Below are positions 3,325 to 23,389 of a stretch of DNA of 46,261 nucleotides, piece by piece. Numbering within the stretch: position 1 is the stretch's first letter; each line of letters begins with the position of its first letter. Made by a program: the position numbers and the translations under genes. Source of the DNA: a virus; the IMG/VR virus record IMGVR_UViG_3300008807_000161, positions 1 to 46,261 of that record, one strand, 5' to 3'. The notes beneath the pieces are model-generated. The model did not search any database. It saw only the letters and a list, made by a program, of their open reading frames with translations, and was not told the DNA's origin.

Positions 3325-3810
3325 CTATCGAGTCGCCTTGTCATGTACGCCGATCAGTCCCCATAAAATCGACTGCCCACTGTTGCCAACTCGACAAAAC
3401 ACGCTATTTTCGAGTTCGCGCACAAATCTCTTGAGCGTGCTTTTTGGTATGTCCAAGTCCGCGCACACAACGGGGACGTGCGACGGGCCATACTGCAACA
3501 GGTAGGCCGTGACGCGCTGTTGCAGTTCGGCGCGCCGCTTGGCTCTGAGTTCGGTTTGCACGCGTTTGGCGTCACTTATGTTGTATTTAGGCCGGAGATG
3601 CTCCACAAGCACCGGCTCTAGCGCGTCAACCACATCAAACGGCTTGACGGTATCCGCCCTGCCCACGTCAACGATGCGGGTCACACGGCCAATCACGTAG
3701 CCGTCTTGGGTGACGCCGAGCGGTCGCACAAAGGTCTTGACCACGCGCCCGCTGAACCTGGCATACTGGTCGTCGGGTGTGTAGGCGCGGCCCGCGGTTG
3801 ACGTTTTCAT
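3325..3810 (-). CDS. Hypothetical protein (161 aa) with a possible C-terminal HTH.
   Basis: ORF 3325..3861 trimmed to ATG 3810 (MKTSTAGR), which overlaps the upstream TGA as ATGA. C-terminal segment is DLDIPKSTLKRFVRELE. Confidence 0.6.
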   Translation of the reverse strand: MKTSTAGRAYTPDDQYARFSGRVVKTFVRPLGVTQDGYVIGRVTRIVDVGRADTVKPFDVVDALEPVLVEHLRPKYNISDAKRVQTELRAKRRAELQQRVTAYLLQYGPSHVPVVCADLDIPKSTLKRFVRELENSVFCRVGNSGQSILWGLIGVHDKATR

Positions 3811-10587: not shown

Positions 10588-10815
10588 ATGGCAAAAAAAT
10601 CTAATACCCCCGGCAAGCCCACTGACGGCAAGGGCAAAGACACAAACACTGCCAAGCCGCAAAAAAAGAAAACGACGGAACGGGACGCCGATTCGAGGCG
10701 CACTCGTCCATCTCGACGCGCGTACAGCTTTTTTGTTGCCAGCATCCCGTCTGAGCGACAAGAAAAACAAATGCGGGGAATCTTCGCCTGGCTTGCTCGC
10801 CTACGCTGCGGGTAA
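10588..10815 (+). CDS. Small lysine/arginine-rich ORF (75 aa) convergent on the repressor gene. Antirepressor candidate, or a non-coding antisense transcript.
   Basis: ATG 10588 lies 12 nt after AGGAG (10571..10575). Sequence is MAKKSNTPGKPTDGKGKDTNTAKPQKKKTTERD... Its 3' end overlaps the repressor 3' end by 15 nt. The coding status is uncertain. Confidence 0.35.
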   Translation: MAKKSNTPGKPTDGKGKDTNTAKPQKKKTTERDADSRRTRPSRRAYSFFVASIPSERQEKQMRGIFAWLARLRCG

Positions 10816-11340
10816 TTGCGGTGCGCTTTTGGGCGGCTGGTCACTATTTCCATAGACTCTCTGATCAAGTCGCCGCAACGTTTCCATAACCAGATCGGTT
10901 TGTTCTGGCCCCGCAATCTCGTCCCCGTAGTCAAGCATCATCTCGATCAACTCTTGCCGAGCCATGCGTCGAATCTCTTCGCTCGATTCCACAAACCCTT
11001 TTGCTACAATATACAGTTCGTAGTTGCGCCCCCGATCCAGTTGACGCATAAACTCCACCACCTCGGCTGCAAAATCCGGCAGAGGGGGTGCGTCACTTGG
11101 CTCTGGATTCCCGGATCGCCCACTCAAATAGTCGGATGATGTAGGGAACCCGCGCGCAATCTTCTCCACGGTGTCAGAGCGCGGATTTTGCCGATTGCCA
11201 CTGAGAATGTTAGATATGCTGCCTTCGCTGACGCCGGATGCTCGGCTCAAGTCTGCGACAGACATTCCCTTGATGCGTAATAAGTCTTCTATTCGATCCG
11301 CTACGATAGACCTCTGTTTTGCCATATCACCATAATACAT
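10801..11340 (-). CDS. CI-like repressor: XRE-family HTH with a helical C-terminal domain and no S24 peptidase domain.
   Basis: HTH segment LLRIKGMSVADLSRASGVSEGSISNILSGNRQNPRSDTVEKIARGF. It is divergent from the Cro-like gene across the operators. The start may be ATG 11340 or ATG 11325 (MAKQRS). Confidence 0.8.
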   Translation of the reverse strand: MYYGDMAKQRSIVADRIEDLLRIKGMSVADLSRASGVSEGSISNILSGNRQNPRSDTVEKIARGFPTSSDYLSGRSGNPEPSDAPPLPDFAAEVVEFMRQLDRGRNYELYIVAKGFVESSEEIRRMARQELIEMMLDYGDEIAGPEQTDLVMETLRRLDQRVYGNSDQPPKSAPQLPAA

Positions 11341-11361
11341 AATCTGGCCCTACCTTTTCAA
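11332..11361 (-). promoter_or_regulatory. Candidate maintenance promoter (PRM-like) that could give a leaderless repressor mRNA.
   Basis: Minus strand reads TTGAAA (11361..11356), 18 nt, TATTAT (11337..11332), GGTGAT, then ATG at 11325. The -35 lies inside operator OR-a. Confidence 0.3.
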
Positions 11362-11371
11362 GCGAAAAGCA
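11352..11371. promoter_or_regulatory. Operator OR-a, a perfect 16-bp palindromic core CTTTTCAAGCGAAAAG.
   Basis: The core at 11354..11369 is the exact reverse complement of the OL-a core at 8997..9012. Confidence 0.75.
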
Positions 11372-11417: not shown

Positions 11418-11435
11418 TATTTCAATCGAAAAGAA
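11416..11435. promoter_or_regulatory. Operator OR-c (14/20), overlapping the -10 and start of the rightward promoter.
   Basis: ATTATTTCAATCGAAAAGAA. Its centre is 30 bp from OR-b. Confidence 0.5.
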
Positions 11436-11449
11436 ACGGAGGGTTTACG

Positions 11450-11671
11450 ATGTCTGAAATCGAACGGCTCGACAACTGGATGCGCGAACACGGCTACAGC
11501 AAGCGCACGATGGCAGAAGCAGTCGGTATGAGCTATGACGGCTTTTATCAAATCTTTTGGCGCAAGAAGATCAGTCCCGGCTTCAAGTTGCGTTTTATTA
11601 ACCGCTTTGGTGCTGATGCCGCAGATCGCGTTTTTGACAAGCCAGCACTCCCTCGACTCGAACCCGTGTAG
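11450..11671 (+). CDS. Cro-like small HTH regulator (73 aa).
   Basis: ORF 11396..11671 trimmed to ATG 11450, which follows ACGGAGGG. Sequence is MSEIERLDNWMREHGYSKRTMAEAVGMSYDGFYQIF. It is divergent from the repressor. Confidence 0.75.
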   Translation: MSEIERLDNWMREHGYSKRTMAEAVGMSYDGFYQIFWRKKISPGFKLRFINRFGADAADRVFDKPALPRLEPV

Positions 11672-12075: not shown

Positions 12076-12278
12076 ACGCTCGGCGACAAGTGGGCGGCTA
12101 TGCGTGGCGTGACGAGTTGGAGGGCGTCCGTCGTCATTGCGACGATGTGGCACGAGGATTGACCGAATTGAGCAAACATGCTCGCACGGTCGAAGTGTCA
12201 AACCTGATTACTCGGTTGGTGGTGTCGAATTCGCAGATCGCGCTCGCCGTGATGGATTTACGGGATTACAAGCCATGA
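12072..12278 (+). CDS. Hypothetical protein (68 aa).
   Basis: ATG 12072 overlaps the upstream TGA (ATGA). This is ORF 11940..12278 trimmed. Confidence 0.55.
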   Translation: MNARRQVGGYAWRDELEGVRRHCDDVARGLTELSKHARTVEVSNLITRLVVSNSQIALAVMDLRDYKP

Positions 12279-12631
12279 ACGCTATTCAACCTAGCCTCTT
12301 TGAAATTCAGCCAACTGTCACACCGCAATATGCCCGCGAAGCGACGATCCAGGAACGCTTTGACGCTTGGATTGAAGCGAATCCAACCTTTTGGCGGGCG
12401 TTTGTGGGTCTGTGTTTGCAAATGCGCCAACAGGGGATGCGCCGCTGGGGGTCTAAGGCAGCGGTGGAAGTGCTGCGCTATGCGGCGTACACGCAGACCA
12501 TCGGGGACGGTTTTAAAATTCCGAACGATTACAGTTCGCGACTGGCACGAAAAGCTATGCGCGAAGTCCCCGAACTGAGTGATTTTTTCGAGTGCCGTGA
12601 ACTTCGCGAACAAGGGTGCAATCATGACTAA
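12275..12631 (+). CDS. Hypothetical protein (118 aa).
   Basis: ATG 12275 is in an ATGA overlap. Sequence is MNAIQPSLFEIQPTVTPQYAREATIQERFDAW... No family recognised. Confidence 0.6.
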   Translation: MNAIQPSLFEIQPTVTPQYAREATIQERFDAWIEANPTFWRAFVGLCLQMRQQGMRRWGSKAAVEVLRYAAYTQTIGDGFKIPNDYSSRLARKAMREVPELSDFFECRELREQGCNHD

Positions 12632-12767
12632 TCAAGAGCATAGCAAACAGACTGAGCGCGAAGCGTTGGATTGGGTATACGTCGCTATCGCCACCGCTAT
12701 CATCGTCGCGTTGATTTTGGCCGCAGTTGGCGGCCACCATGTCGTTTCGTTGGGGGTGCAGCCATGA
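12624..12767 (+). CDS. Small single-pass membrane protein (47 aa).
   Basis: ATG 12624. TM segment WVYVAIATAIIVALILAAVGG. Overlaps both neighbouring genes. Confidence 0.5.
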   Translation: MTNQEHSKQTEREALDWVYVAIATAIIVALILAAVGGHHVVSLGVQP

Positions 12768-13015
12768 TTGAACTTACTAAGCGCGAATGGATGGTACTGA
12801 CCTGCATCACCACCTATCGACGAGAGCATGGTTATGCGCCCTCGGTCAATGACATCGCCAAGTCCATCGGCAAGCGCGCAGGCGGCACTATCACAGGCGC
12901 GCTACGCAGGCTGGAAGGGAAGGGCGTGATTACCTTTGGACGCAAGAACATTAAATGCCGTCAAGAGCGCGCCATTGGTTTGATTCCAGGGGTTTGGGTG
13001 GGGGTGAAACTGTGA
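12764..13015 (+). CDS. LexA-N-terminal-type winged-helix DNA-binding protein (DNA-binding domain only, 83 aa).
   Basis: MIELTKREWMVLTCITTYRREHGYAPSVNDIAKSIGKRAGGTITGALRRLEGKGVITF parallels E. coli LexA residues [55 protein letters not shown]. There is no linker or S24 domain. Confidence 0.65.
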   Translation: MIELTKREWMVLTCITTYRREHGYAPSVNDIAKSIGKRAGGTITGALRRLEGKGVITFGRKNIKCRQERAIGLIPGVWVGVKL

Positions 13016-18130: not shown

Positions 18131-18274
18131 ATGTTCGACCGCCAACTCTCGCTATCCATTGATGCAATCCACGATGAACTGGATCACCTTGCGTTCGAGC
18201 GAGGGTGGCGGGCTTGGCTGCGAACACACTATCTGCGCTGGAAGCTGCGCCGCCTCGAACGGATGATCCCATGA
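18131..18274 (+). CDS. Small hypothetical protein (47 aa), below the ORF-track cutoff.
   Basis: ATG 18131 lies 3 nt after the upstream TAA. It ends in an ATGA overlap with the helicase start. Sequence is MFDRQLSLSIDAIHDELDHLAFERGWRAWLRTHYLRWKLRRLERMIP. Confidence 0.45.
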   Translation: MFDRQLSLSIDAIHDELDHLAFERGWRAWLRTHYLRWKLRRLERMIP

Positions 18275-19443
18275 AGCCAGCCACGCAAGAAAACCAGCCT
18301 CCTCCCGAAATCGACTTTGGGCATGGTCTCAATGGGGCATATCACATTGCGCCGGAAGATGCGGAGATTGAGGCGCGGGCTGAACGGCTCGTCGGCAAGT
18401 GGAAACTGCGCTCGTTGGCAGATGCCTATGCCGAGCGTCCGCCGCTGCACTTCCTCGTCGATGGCCTGCTACCCTGTCCATCGCTCTCGATTGTCTATGG
18501 CGGCCCTGGCAGTCTCAAGTCCATGCTATTGGCTGACTTGGCCGTTGCTATCGTTGCCGGCGCGAAGTGGTTGGAACCGCTGCCCACCAGTACCAGTGAG
18601 CCAGGTGTCACATTTGCCACGTCGCAGGCAGCTGTGTTGTGGGTAGACTTCGACAATGGTATTCGGCGCACGGACGAACGCATTGAAGCGTTTGCGCGCG
18701 CCCGGCAACTGGCGCCAGACGCGCCACTGCACTATGTCTCGATGCCACAGCCGTGGCTTGACGCAAGCAAAGCCACGATGATGGCCGAACTAGCCGAGTT
18801 GATCACGACACTCAACGCCAAGCTCATCATCATTGACAACCTAGGTCTCATCACCGGCGACACCGAGGAAAACAGCGGTGAAATGGCGCAGGTGATGGGA
18901 AACTTGCGGTGGTTATGCGAAGAGACTGAAAGCGCGGTAATTGTGGTGCATCACCAGCGTAAGAGCAGCGGCACAAATGACAAGGGCATTCGCAAGGGCG
19001 AGATGCTGCGTGGACATAGCAGTATCGAGGCTGCGCTCGACTTGGCCTTGCTCGTTGAACGCAAAGAAGGCGAGGATGCAGTTGCTGTCATCCCAACTAA
19101 AGTGCGCGGCTTCAAGGAATACAACATCTTTGGCGCGCATTTCACATATGACCATCGCCCCGGCACGAAGGATTTGGCAATGGGGCGTTTCTACTCCTTA
19201 ACTGTAACAAGCAAAGAAGAGCGTGAAGTTGAGGCCATTCAGGATGCGATTAAGGCGATCCTGCGCGGTGGCTCGGTGAACACGACTAACCTGGTGAGCG
19301 CAGTCAGAGACAAGCTGGCGGCCATCCCAGGTGGCACGGCCCCTGGCATCAACAAGGTGCGCGGCATTCTCAAAAACATGGTCGAAGCCAACGCAGTAAT
19401 TGAGGACGGCAATGGCGGGGGCAGGGTTTACAGGCTCATTTAG
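18271..19443 (+). CDS. RecA-fold replicative helicase/ATPase (AAA_25 / RepA-like).
   Basis: ORF 18205..19443 trimmed to ATG 18271. Walker A-like YGGPGSLKS, Walker B KLIIIDNLG, and VIVVHHQRK. Confidence 0.75.
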   Translation: MKPATQENQPPPEIDFGHGLNGAYHIAPEDAEIEARAERLVGKWKLRSLADAYAERPPLHFLVDGLLPCPSLSIVYGGPGSLKSMLLADLAVAIVAGAKWLEPLPTSTSEPGVTFATSQAAVLWVDFDNGIRRTDERIEAFARARQLAPDAPLHYVSMPQPWLDASKATMMAELAELITTLNAKLIIIDNLGLITGDTEENSGEMAQVMGNLRWLCEETESAVIVVHHQRKSSGTNDKGIRKGEMLRGHSSIEAALDLALLVERKEGEDAVAVIPTKVRGFKEYNIFGAHFTYDHRPGTKDLAMGRFYSLTVTSKEEREVEAIQDAIKAILRGGSVNTTNLVSAVRDKLAAIPGGTAPGINKVRGILKNMVEANAVIEDGNGGGRVYRLI

Positions 19444-19644
19444 GGTTGACAGAGACCCCGTAAACCCTCGTAAACCCTGGGTTCTCTCACACTGGAGCCA
19501 ATTTGAGGGTTTACGGGCATGGTTTTTATGGGTTTACGGGGGATTTACACCCTCTACTCGACAAGGTTTTCGAGAGTTTACAGCATTTTTCCATAGGGTT
19601 TACGGGTTTACTACTACTATTAAAGTAGTAAACCCGTAAACCCT
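19423..19644. repeat. Iteron array (putative origin of replication): 12 copies of AGGGTTTACG / CGTAAACCCT.
   Basis: Perfect 10-mers lie at 19459, 19469 and 19635 (CGTAAACCCT) and at 19506 and 19595 (AGGGTTTACG). Degenerate copies lie at 19423, 19442, 19529, 19540, 19573, 19603 and 19627. AT-rich stretches lie between them. Confidence 0.7.
19595..19644. repeat. Perfect 21-bp inverted repeat built from iteron pairs.
   Basis: AGGGTTTACGGGTTTACTACT (19595..19615), loop ACTATTAA, AGTAGTAAACCCGTAAACCCT (19624..19644). Confidence 0.9.
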
Positions 19645-19660
19645 CCCAATGGAGGGCATC

Positions 19661-20878
19661 ATGGCAATCCCAGAGATCATTGCACAAGCCAAACAAATCG
19701 ACATCGCCGACCTCGTGGGTCGTTACATTTCGTTGGATCGCGCATCGGGCCATGAATGGCAAGGGCCATGCCCGAAGTGTGGCGGCGATGACCGCCTTCA
19801 CTGTACAGATGAATGGTGGTTCTGTCGCCAGTGCCATCCGAAACGCGGTGACGCCATTGACTTCCTGCGCCATGCCACCGGCTGCACCTTCCAAGAGGCG
19901 ACGGAAAAGCTCACTAGCCAACAATGGCCGGAACGCAAACCGCACGTCTACCAACCCAAAGCGCAGCGAGTCGATGACCGCGCCGAAACGTGGTACGAGG
20001 ATGCAACTCGCCTTATGCGCCATCACCAAGTCGCCTTGCCGGGGAGTGAAGGGGCGGAATATCTGCGCGGTCGTGGTTTGCTGCCTGAGACCTGGGCGGA
20101 ATTTGGCCTCGGCTTTGCGCCGGCGATCAAGAATCCTGAAACCGACGTGATGATGCCCGCCATTGCGATTCCCTGGTATCGAGGCGGCAAGATCACCGCC
20201 ATCCGCTACCGATTCCTCAAACCACCGACGAAGCGCAAGATTACTAGCTTGCCAGGGTCGAAGTTTGGCGGCGTGCTTTTTGGCGGCCAGGCGTTGCCCG
20301 ACTGGGTGACATCGCCGCTGCCCTACATCGAACGGGGCTGTGAGCAATGGTGTACGTTGGTCATTTGCGAGGGTGAGATCAACGCCATGAGCATCTGGCA
20401 GGTGGCACATGATACGCACCTGCATGTGATGAGTACCGGCAGCGAGTCAGGTCGCTTGAGCGAGGGGGCCGTGGCTTTTGCCGAACGGTATGGGCGGGTC
20501 ATCATCTGGATGGATAAAGAAGAACTCGCCAAGCAACTGATGGGCCAAGTGTCCAACGCTCACGCCTGCTACTCGCCACAGGGCAAGGACGCCAACGATT
20601 TGTTGCAGGCGGGGTTGCTGGGCAGCTTCCTGCTTGATCAGCGATGGCGCTCGACTCGCTCCGATGATGAACGGTCGCAACTCATCTTTGATTTGTGGGA
20701 CGCAGCCAACGAGGGCGATGGCCTGGAAAGTAGCACAGCCGCGGCGTATCGCAGGCTCTGCGAGCATGTAGGGCGTGCGTTTGACCTTACTGAGTCGGAG
20801 CCTGGTGTGTGGATGACCAAGCGGCGTCTGGTTTTCGATAAGTTCCTTGATGCCCATGTCGACCACGTTGCAACCTAA
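19661..20878 (+). CDS. DnaG-type DNA primase (CHC2 zinc finger plus TOPRIM).
   Basis: ATG 19661 follows GGAGGG. Zinc finger is CPKCGGDDRLHC...CRQCH. TOPRIM is VICEGEINAMS ... IIWMDKEE. Confidence 0.8.
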   Translation: MAIPEIIAQAKQIDIADLVGRYISLDRASGHEWQGPCPKCGGDDRLHCTDEWWFCRQCHPKRGDAIDFLRHATGCTFQEATEKLTSQQWPERKPHVYQPKAQRVDDRAETWYEDATRLMRHHQVALPGSEGAEYLRGRGLLPETWAEFGLGFAPAIKNPETDVMMPAIAIPWYRGGKITAIRYRFLKPPTKRKITSLPGSKFGGVLFGGQALPDWVTSPLPYIERGCEQWCTLVICEGEINAMSIWQVAHDTHLHVMSTGSESGRLSEGAVAFAERYGRVIIWMDKEELAKQLMGQVSNAHACYSPQGKDANDLLQAGLLGSFLLDQRWRSTRSDDERSQLIFDLWDAANEGDGLESSTAAAYRRLCEHVGRAFDLTESEPGVWMTKRRLVFDKFLDAHVDHVAT

Positions 20879-22967: not shown

Positions 22968-23008
22968 TACGCTCCTGGTAAACCCCGAAATCTAAAGGAG
23001 ATGGCATT

Positions 23009-23389
23009 GTGCTTCAGTTAGCAGAGCGATTCTTGGATAGCATTGACAGCAGCGGCGGCGGATGGCCGGTCTTAGTTTTGGTCTTGGTCTTGGCGGCCAT
23101 TGTCTATCTGGCTCGATTTATGCTGAGTCGTCAGATGAAAACTGCGGAGCAACGTGTCCAGGATCGCAAGGCTGAGTTTGAGGCACAGTTGGAGCGGGAG
23201 CGGGACAATGCGCGCAACTATCAGGACACGACCAATCGCATGGTTGAGGCGTTCGACAAGAACACAACCGCCATTGCCGAGTTTTCGAGTATCTTGCGCC
23301 CGATGTCGGACACGCTGAATCGGCTGGATCGGCATATGGAAGTAAGCAATTCGTTTAGACAACGCAGCAAACCGAGGGATGCGGAATGA
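23009..23389 (+). CDS. Putative holin (single TM plus coiled coil).
   Basis: GTG 23009 lies 8 nt after AGGAG. TM segment WPVLVLVLVLAAIVYLARFML. It is immediately upstream of and overlaps the endolysin gene. Confidence 0.55.
   Translation: MLQLAERFLDSIDSSGGGWPVLVLVLVLAAIVYLARFMLSRQMKTAEQRVQDRKAEFEAQLERERDNARNYQDTTNRMVEAFDKNTTAIAEFSSILRPMSDTLNRLDRHMEVSNSFRQRSKPRDAE

Follow-up and report, generated by a model that had tools for sequence, protein, structure and literature searches.

Where does replication of a temperate phage begin, and which protein recognizes that place? This question is raised by an array of short repeats (iterons) that lies between a helicase gene and a DnaG-type primase gene in IMG/VR record IMGVR_UViG_3300008807_000161 (the window), a viral genome that is complete at 46,261 bp and has terminal repeats, so that all motif counts given here are genome-wide. 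The element that carries the array is a full temperate phage. Our study suggests that the array, which runs from 19423 or 19442 to 19644, is likely to be a replication origin whose iterons are read by a winged-helix domain (residues 313-390) at the C-terminus of the superfamily 4 (SF4) helicase encoded directly upstream. Comparison shows the array to be a genuine and conserved cis element and very probably the replication origin of the phage, and a single protein appears both to find this origin and to unwind it. An iteron-type origin had been proposed by a first-pass annotation of the sequence, and comparison now lends strong support to that proposal, with place and layout being kept in approximately 45 loci and the repeat itself varying by lineage.

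The 10-mer AGGGTTTACG or its complement occurs perfectly at 11440(+), 19459(-), 19469(-), 19506(+), 19595(+) and 19635(-). These six matches compare to an expectation of 0.03, and six was reached in none of 100 shuffles; the five array copies and the single remote copy of the first-pass annotation were therefore all recovered. When up to two mismatches were permitted on both strands, 35 matches were found compared to 25.4 expected, and 12 of these fell within the 222 bp between 19423 and 19644 (0.5 % of the genome), where approximately 0.1 would be expected. The enrichment of degenerate copies that had been claimed was thereby confirmed, and no second iteron cluster was found in the complete genome, the other 23 matches being scattered at background density. 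A 13th copy, with three mismatches, is located at 19540-19549. The 8-mer GGGTTTAC was found 11 times in the genome, nine times in the array and once each at 11441(+) and 22978(-), and the iteron consensus in the window is AGGGTTTAC(G)GG.

The array is composed of an inverted cluster at its left end, a central cluster of direct copies and a terminal palindrome (Table 1). The tandem pair in the left cluster and the perfect 21-nt inverted repeat that forms the palindrome arms (19595-19615 / 19624-19644) are both present as first described. The palindrome loop, ACTATTAA (19616-19623), is A/T-rich as reported but not A/T-only, as seven of its eight nucleotides are A or T. As single-stranded DNA the palindrome is predicted to fold into a hairpin of -24.6 kcal/mol (z = -9.6); it is not an intrinsic terminator, as scanning the array for promoters and terminators gave neither an intrinsic terminator nor a sigma-70-like promoter. 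The degenerate copies at 19442, 19529, 19563 and 19573 are real iteron positions, because a 94 %-identical relative (L086) holds perfect or better copies at the homologous positions. The copy at 19423 places the start of the array inside the 3' end of the helicase gene, as had been noted, but its status as an iteron is ambiguous because the same conserved-codon letters (AGGGTTTACA) are kept in L010, L013 and L014, relatives whose iteron is GGGTTTTCA. The array adjoins the primase gene as described, at a distance of 16 nt and not 17 nt from the ATG, and a start at 19661 yields the N-terminus MAIPEII, which is conserved. The pairing of CCCTCC with GGAGGG at the primase Shine-Dalgarno (SD) sequence does exist, but the occlusion proposed for it was not borne out, as the pairing has no counterpart in most relatives and competes with the far stronger palindrome.

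Hundreds of helicase homologues, of metagenomic origin, were identified, and their DNA was taken from viral, metagenome and genome collections and from assemblies (loci are given here as L numbers). This yielded 50 distinct readable downstream regions, for 43 of which a repeat seed could be defined (helicase identity 34-84 %). In 42 of the 43 seeded loci, 6-20 copies of a lineage-specific 6-7-mer seed (≤1 mismatch) were found within approximately 340 nt of the helicase stop codon, and in most loci the commonest repeat word is nearly confined to the stretch that follows this stop. In approximately 45 distinct relatives altogether (helicase 34-94 % identical), the gene for the same AAA_25/RepA-like helicase is followed directly, on its 3' side, by an array. 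The order of the elements also recurs, with a few inverted copies at the stop codon, then direct copies, then a perfect terminal palindrome. In most relatives the array is closed by an iteron-armed, AT-centred palindrome, each arm consisting of one or two iterons and a short stem (CACAC or CCCC), with TATA or TTTAAA at the centre. The window palindrome itself is kept at 100 % in L085 and L086, which are 93-94 % identical and come from other samples, and both of these have perfect iterons at places where those of the window are degenerate. L085 (93 % identical) lacks approximately 60 bp corresponding to the left inverted cluster (L085 1870-1880 compared to 19444-19505 in the window) and retains the rest of the array; this is either a natural deletion variant, which would suggest that the left cluster is dispensable, or an assembly artefact.

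The conserved part of the iteron is approximately 8-11 nt long in the relatives. When aligned on an invariant C, the iterons display a common 3' half, T-T/C-A/T-C-G/A-G-G, and a variable 5' half. The iteron reads GGGTTTACG in the window, GGGTTTTCA in L010, L013 and L014, TTCATTAC in L008 and L011, ATCTTACG in L015 and L087, GGTTATTACGGG in L016, ATCGTTACGG in L023, TTGTCACGGG in L024, AATCCTCACGG in L058 and GAGACTTTCAG in L051 and L055. In L016 the iteron of this locus (GTTATTAC) is present twice more, at an interval of 10 bp on the minus strand at L016 4172-4189, inside the primase gene and approximately 300 bp past the array, and this pair may be an auxiliary site. Non-iteron boxes are also found within the array (CTCACACTGGAG, CTACTCGACA and ATTTTTCCATAG at 19486-19497, 19553-19562 and 19586-19597) and are kept by close relatives even where the iterons differ. 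Such boxes (ACTCGA, CACTGG, CCAGAG and TTTCCA) are common to sub-clades and displayed no clear family-wide enrichment; do they serve a host factor, or a priming site?

Helicase and primase are the neighbours of the array in all close relatives, and in some other relatives the array stays where the next gene is not a primase. Array and helicase gene travel together across very different phage backbones. The cultured Roseobacter phage CRP-811 (L083) is built alike: approximately 10 CTACAAA repeats and an iteron-armed palindrome (3518-3680) directly follow the gene for a 745-aa RepA-family helicase, the end of which is again a winged-helix-like tail. This genome carries no origin annotation and the phage description mentions no origin. 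The arrangement is not universal in AAA_25, since the more distant AAA_25 primase/helicase of Gordonia phage Hexbug is followed by a 58-nt gap with no visible array. The module had no nucleotide-level match in the phage collection, and a protein search gave only ATPase-core matches at 23-29 % identity.

Which protein reads the iterons is best indicated by the places at which related loci cease to resemble one another. Between the window and L087, DNA identity is 80-97 % over the ATPase part of the helicase gene, 40-60 % between approximately 19240 and 19636, and 80-93 % over the primase gene from 19637; the same pattern was found between the window and L008. Likewise, L050 and L056 have ATPase parts that are 97.4 % identical, winged helices that are 39 % identical and unrelated iterons, with the break approximately 250 nt before the stop codon. 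In these alignments winged helix and array are exactly what changes as a unit, and the adjacent primase N-terminus is outside this unit. We regard these cassette boundaries, read from the DNA comparisons, as the strongest evidence on the iteron reader, and we propose that winged helix and array behave as one exchangeable specificity cassette. The primase would not be part of this cassette, because its DNA identity to L087 and L008 recovers even though the iterons differ.

Further evidence came from the mutual information between 304 helicase columns and anchored iteron positions, computed over 40 non-redundant loci. Residue N361, the first of the predicted recognition helix (H360-372), was the best predictor of iteron position -1, which is A or T (z 8.8, compared to 3.0 for the runner-up). 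Asn361 is paired with A at this position in 27 of 27 loci, and T was found only with Ser, Thr, Ala or Pro at residue 361 (7/7 loci), the T state requiring at least six changes on the ATPase tree. Wing residues 383-385 ranked top for the variable 5' half of the iteron, and at most iteron positions winged-helix columns were more informative on the bases than other columns. In particular, L015 and L087 have a common iteron and the common wing motif HAHQ, though their winged helices are only 63 % identical. In a partial Mantel test, iteron similarity followed the identity of the winged helices once that of the ATPase parts was controlled for (r 0.15, p 0.008), and the reverse test, ATPase given winged helix, was not upheld (r 0.02, p 0.35).

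The helicase matches Pfam AAA_25 (1e-29) and also DnaB_C. Its AlphaFold2 (AF2) model has a mean predicted local distance difference test (pLDDT) score of 79.7 and a RecA-type core, with fold matches to Twinkle, DnaB and RSF1010 RepA (1g8y, 1olo); on this model the core is a RecA-fold SF4 helicase, and not an SF3 or SF6 AAA+ enzyme. Residues 313-390 were modelled in the order helix, strand, helix, helix, beta-hairpin with a pLDDT of approximately 85-90 (85.5 when modelled alone), and a fold search with this part alone matched generic winged-helix folds with a template modelling (TM) score of up to 0.80. No Pfam model covers residues 313-390, a sequence-profile search of the winged helix against the PDB gave no significant match, and the fold search gave no specific link to the P4 alpha domain. 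A winged-helix profile detected only 42 clusters among 1.84 billion representatives, and in matching proteins of helicase length (approximately 336-715 aa) the domain is at the C-terminal end. The first-pass annotation had offered three candidate initiators, and the helicase C-terminal domain, now resolved into a predicted winged helix that belongs to the cassette and contains N361, is the one that gained support; as modelled and compared here, it is most likely the iteron reader. The other two, the product of 12275..12631 and the LexA-like protein, did not hold up, being found in 3/9 and 1/9, respectively, of the array-bearing loci with long flanks.

Table 1. Array elements, replication genes and early-operon genes of the window
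Feature	Position	Strand	Remarks
Iteron-like copy AGGGTTTACA	19423..19432	+	1 mismatch; within helicase codons R-V-Y
Degenerate iteron AGGGTTGACA	19442..19451	+	2 mismatches; overlaps helicase stop codon; perfect AGGGTTTACG at same place in L086
Left cluster, tandem perfect iteron pair	19459..19478	-	10-bp spacing; inverted relative to rest; inverted proximal pair also in relatives
Spacer with non-iteron box CTCACACTGGAG	19479..19505		Box in either orientation in close relatives
Central direct-repeat cluster	19506..19582	+	Copies at 19506, 19529, 19540 (3 mismatches), 19563, 19573; T-rich spacers GGTTTTTATGG
Terminal palindrome	19595..19644		Two overlapping iterons per arm: 19595, 19603 (+); 19627, 19635 (-)
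HTH (helix-turn-helix) repressor	10801-11340	-	Early region
Lone perfect AGGGTTTACG	11440..11449	+	Overlaps GGAGG SD, abuts cro-like ATG
cro-like gene	ATG at 11450		Rightward early operon; second in gene order after repressor
LexA-like winged-helix protein	12764-13015		83 aa; early operon
SNF2 helicase fused to N6/N4 methyltransferase			Early operon, after LexA-like gene
DnaN beta clamp			Early operon, after SNF2/methyltransferase gene
Small open reading frames (ORFs) and phage metallopeptidase			Early operon, between beta clamp and 47-aa ORF
47-aa ORF	18131-18274		Overlaps helicase start (ATGA)
AAA_25/RepA-like helicase gene	18271..19443	+	390-aa product
C-terminal winged helix (predicted)	19207..19440	+	Residues 313-390 (78 residues); H315-331, H338-350, recognition helix H360-372, wing strands 376-379, 386-389
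Primase SD GGAGGG	19651..19656	+	
DnaG-type primase gene	19661..20878	+	CHC2 zinc ribbon and Toprim (Pfam, NCBIfam)
VRR-NUC nuclease gene			After primase; last in early gene order listed

The arrangement closely resembles the replication modules (Pri, Rep or PriRep, and ori) of Staphylococcus aureus pathogenicity islands (SaPIs) and phage-inducible chromosomal islands (PICIs), which also combine a ring helicase bearing a C-terminal winged helix with an ori directly downstream of the helicase gene. SaPI Rep binds iterons immediately downstream of rep via this winged helix and needs neither a separate initiator nor a loader (PMC9371898; bioRxiv 10.64898/2026.10.17.759575). There, too, 6-12 short iterons are present, and an AT-rich region is flanked on either side by two or more of them in opposite orientation (PMC9371898; bioRxiv 10.64898/2026.10.17.759575). 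The window, in common with its relatives, displays a layout of this type: the array starts at the stop codon, and two plus two inverted iterons surround the AT loop in addition to the inverted left cluster. SaPI Rep and ori form matched specificity pairs, the putative counterpart of which in the window is the cassette of winged helix and array. However, SaPI Rep is an AAA+ helicase of SF3 or SF6 (MCM-like) that moves 3'->5', whereas the window helicase is of the RecA-fold SF4 type. Furthermore, the window primase is of the DnaG type and is encoded downstream of the putative ori, unlike the SaPI primase, which is upstream or fused, and the phage is not a satellite.

P4 alpha likewise unites a helicase and a C-terminal winged-helix origin-binding domain in one polypeptide, and this domain reads repeated octamers (PMC4889955, citing Yeo et al. 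2002). Unlike the window helicase, alpha belongs to SF3 (D5-like) and is fused to a primase, and P4 has two separate repeat clusters, ori and crr. The best reading of the model and the comparisons is that the window helicase works like the SaPI Rep and P4 alpha kind but lies outside their protein families. A 2016 survey of viral replication described origin-binding fusions as typical of SF3, and SF4 helicases as stand-alone or primase-fused (PMC4889955).

By family (AAA_25/RepA; fold matches 1g8y and 1olo) the helicase is instead allied to that of the IncQ plasmid RSF1010. The oriV of RSF1010 is made up of iterons, an A/T-rich segment and, close to the priming sites (ssiA/ssiB), a large palindromic element, which is a likeness to the window array. 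However, RSF1010 RepA is without a DNA-binding tail, and it is RepC that binds the iterons and melts the DNA; domain scans found neither a RepC-like gene nor a RepB'-type primase in the window, the primase of which is of the DnaG type. Within the RepA/DnaB-like family, 5'->3' movement is known for RSF1010 RepA and lactococcal phage gp46 (PMC8965321).

In phage lambda, too, an iteron origin is joined to the gene of its reader, binding domain and iterons co-vary, and the origin is in a transcribed early operon (PMC7466680). The O protein differs in being a pure initiator that recruits host DnaB via P, with iterons in the middle of the O gene. The Streptomyces plasmid pWTY27 offers a further parallel, as its RepA binds, by electrophoretic mobility shift assay and footprint, a long inverted repeat of short direct and inverted repeats beside the rep genes, and replication is bidirectional (PMC3583192). 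Its partner protein is a Prim-Pol (RepB), however, and the replicon is a plasmid; pWTY27 RepA is called a hypothetical protein in the paper and is likened here by description only.

From these patterns we infer binding, melting, self-loading and origin function, which could be joined as follows. Helicase subunits would dock via flexible winged helices and become concentrated on the direct and inverted iterons. Two oppositely facing ring assemblies could form on the terminal palindrome, with two iterons per arm, and its A/T-rich centre would melt or be extruded as a cruciform. The rings would then close around single strands, the helicase thereby loading itself without a separate initiator or loader. 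The neighbouring DnaG-type primase, a usual partner of an SF4 helicase, would prime, and host polymerase would extend, aided by the beta clamp of the phage. Transcription of the operon through the site may assist opening, as at ori-lambda.

A broader proposal, to which we give even weight for and against, is that the window represents a family of SF4 RepA-like helicases, presumably 5'->3', that are self-initiating via a C-terminal winged helix, have genes whose 3' end invariably carries a fused iteron origin and evolve by cassette swap with a readable code. As part of this joint proposal, the choice between A and T in the TT(A/T)C core would depend on residue 361 (Asn compared to Ser, Thr or Ala), and the variable 5' half on the wing tip. 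Self-loading helicase-initiators have so far been described for SF3 and SF6 helicases, and an SF4 version would need to load with the opposite polarity. Within the literature that could be searched, no paper was found on an SF4 helicase that is paired in this way with an iteron origin through its own tail.

Several observations weigh against an origin read by the helicase itself. No SF4 ring helicase is known to melt duplex DNA by itself. GC skew and cumulative skew, a check that had been suggested for this locus, follow gene orientation and display no inflection at 19.5 kb, which is uninformative either way. All loci were collected via the helicase, so that the constant adjacency of helicase and array is partly a sampling effect. 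The winged helix is contiguous with the array, and co-inheritance alone could reflect linkage. Six loci combine a residue other than Asn at position 361 with A at iteron -1, and a strict phylogenetic independent-pairs test of N361 against the iteron base was not significant, with too few pairs (only five supported pairs, of which 2-4 were concordant and none discordant; median p 0.25). Finally, iteron similarity also correlated with the primase N-terminus (Mantel r 0.66, p 0.03), with only nine loci carrying a window-like primase. The primase was considered as the iteron reader on this account and rejected, as the correlation rests on few points and is contradicted by the pairwise cassette boundaries.

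The remote perfect copy at the cro-like gene had been taken as a hint that the iteron-binding protein also touches early gene expression. If it were a functional site, the protein would modulate cro translation, and both its position, overlapping the cro SD and abutting the ATG, and the low chance expectation for a perfect 10-mer outside the array (0.03 genome-wide) are in keeping with this. Half of the 10-mer is, however, an ordinary GGAGG(G) SD, and the copy stands alone, unlike the many sites on which the array relies. The five relatives that cover the repressor/cro region (L010, L011, L014, L015 and L017, with other iterons) all lack their own iteron 8-mer near cro, leaving the suggestion without a counterpart. 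Control of the cro promoter is, moreover, already accounted for by two palindromic boxes, CTTTTC-N4-GAAAAG (11354-11369 and 11419-11433), which flank and overlap this promoter (TTGACG-N17-TATTAT) and look like repressor/Cro operators. On these comparisons the copy is probably due to chance, and a regulatory role for it is unlikely.

It is rather improbable that the array, although bound by the winged helix, serves mainly as an operator or roadblock that sets how strongly the primase and the replication genes downstream are expressed, or autoregulates the operon, with replication starting elsewhere or by another route, for example a recombination-dependent one. The array is inside the operon, 16 nt 5' of the primase start, with its palindrome covering the region just 5' of the primase SD, and many plasmid initiators also repress transcription via inverted repeats. 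However, at least 12 sites over 220 bp and an AT-centred palindrome far exceed the needs of an operator, no promoter-like site was found in or beside the array, and the array persists in those relatives whose next gene is not a primase. Furthermore, a DNA-binding domain fused to a replicative helicase is what characterizes origin recognition by SaPI Rep and P4 alpha (PMC9371898, PMC4889955).

Slightly less probable still is that the array is an origin whose iterons are read by a separate initiator, be it a host protein or another phage protein such as the 12275-12631 product or the LexA-like protein (12764-13015), with the helicase being loaded secondarily, as RepC does for RSF1010 RepA. This is suggested by RSF1010 RepA itself, a member of the same helicase family that depends on the iteron-binding RepC (PMC8965321 discussion; fold match 1g8y), by the LexA-type winged helix encoded in the window and by an 83-aa Phage_rep_O-like winged-helix ORF that replaces the metallopeptidase gene upstream in L087 (388-639). 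The sparse occurrence of the two window candidates among the array-bearing loci argues against it, as does the finding that L015 and L087 share an iteron type when their small winged-helix proteins are unrelated. What diverges as a cassette between the window and L087 or L008 is confined to the winged helix of the helicase and the array. In Pfam scans, the early ORFs gave no O-, RepC-, DnaD-, P- or DnaC-type domain above family threshold, several small ORFs carrying no family assignment, and the LexA-like protein gave a sub-threshold DnaD_N match (E 0.033). In particular, Phage_rep_O had no match in Pfam scans of the window, the small O-like ORF being present only in the relative L087. A DNA polymerase or classical initiator domain was also not found by domain scans among the early-operon genes. 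A cis site for packaging (pac), partition or site-specific recombination is very improbable: palindrome-bearing repeat arrays are known from pac sites and centromeres too, but no terminase small subunit, ParA/ParB or recombinase gene adjoins the array, the integrase and attP region is elsewhere (approximately 9.2-10.3 kb), and the array has helicase and primase as neighbours in all close relatives and moves with the helicase gene across backbones.

If an origin read by the winged helix of its own helicase is indeed what the array represents, a helicase that finds its own origin would have arisen on a bacterial-type SF4 scaffold, besides the scaffolds of SF3 and SF6 on which SaPIs, P4 and eukaryotic viruses rely. 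It would also constitute a compact two-gene system (helicase, primase and a 220-bp ori) for loader-free placement of a 5'->3' ring helicase on duplex DNA. The natural cassette swaps, together with the residue-base correspondence, would provide ready-made specificity mutants, and matched helicase/ori pairs of differing specificity could serve as orthogonal replicons. A rule that places the origin right after the stop codon of the AAA_25 helicase would allow origins to be annotated, where at present there is no such annotation, not only in at least one cultured roseophage but also in many uncultured phages and prophages.

Some further observations concern the helicase genes and their surroundings. 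The 47-aa ORF that overlaps the helicase start (18131-18274) is kept in L011, L014, L015, L017, L085, L086 and L087, and its product could be a candidate helicase partner. The lone GGGTTTAC core at 22978-22985 (-) is a single copy in a short gap 5' of a membrane-protein gene (23009-23389), just before the endolysin gene. Five proteins (P0028, P0029, P0032, P0038 and P0047) are putative one-protein primase-helicase-initiators.

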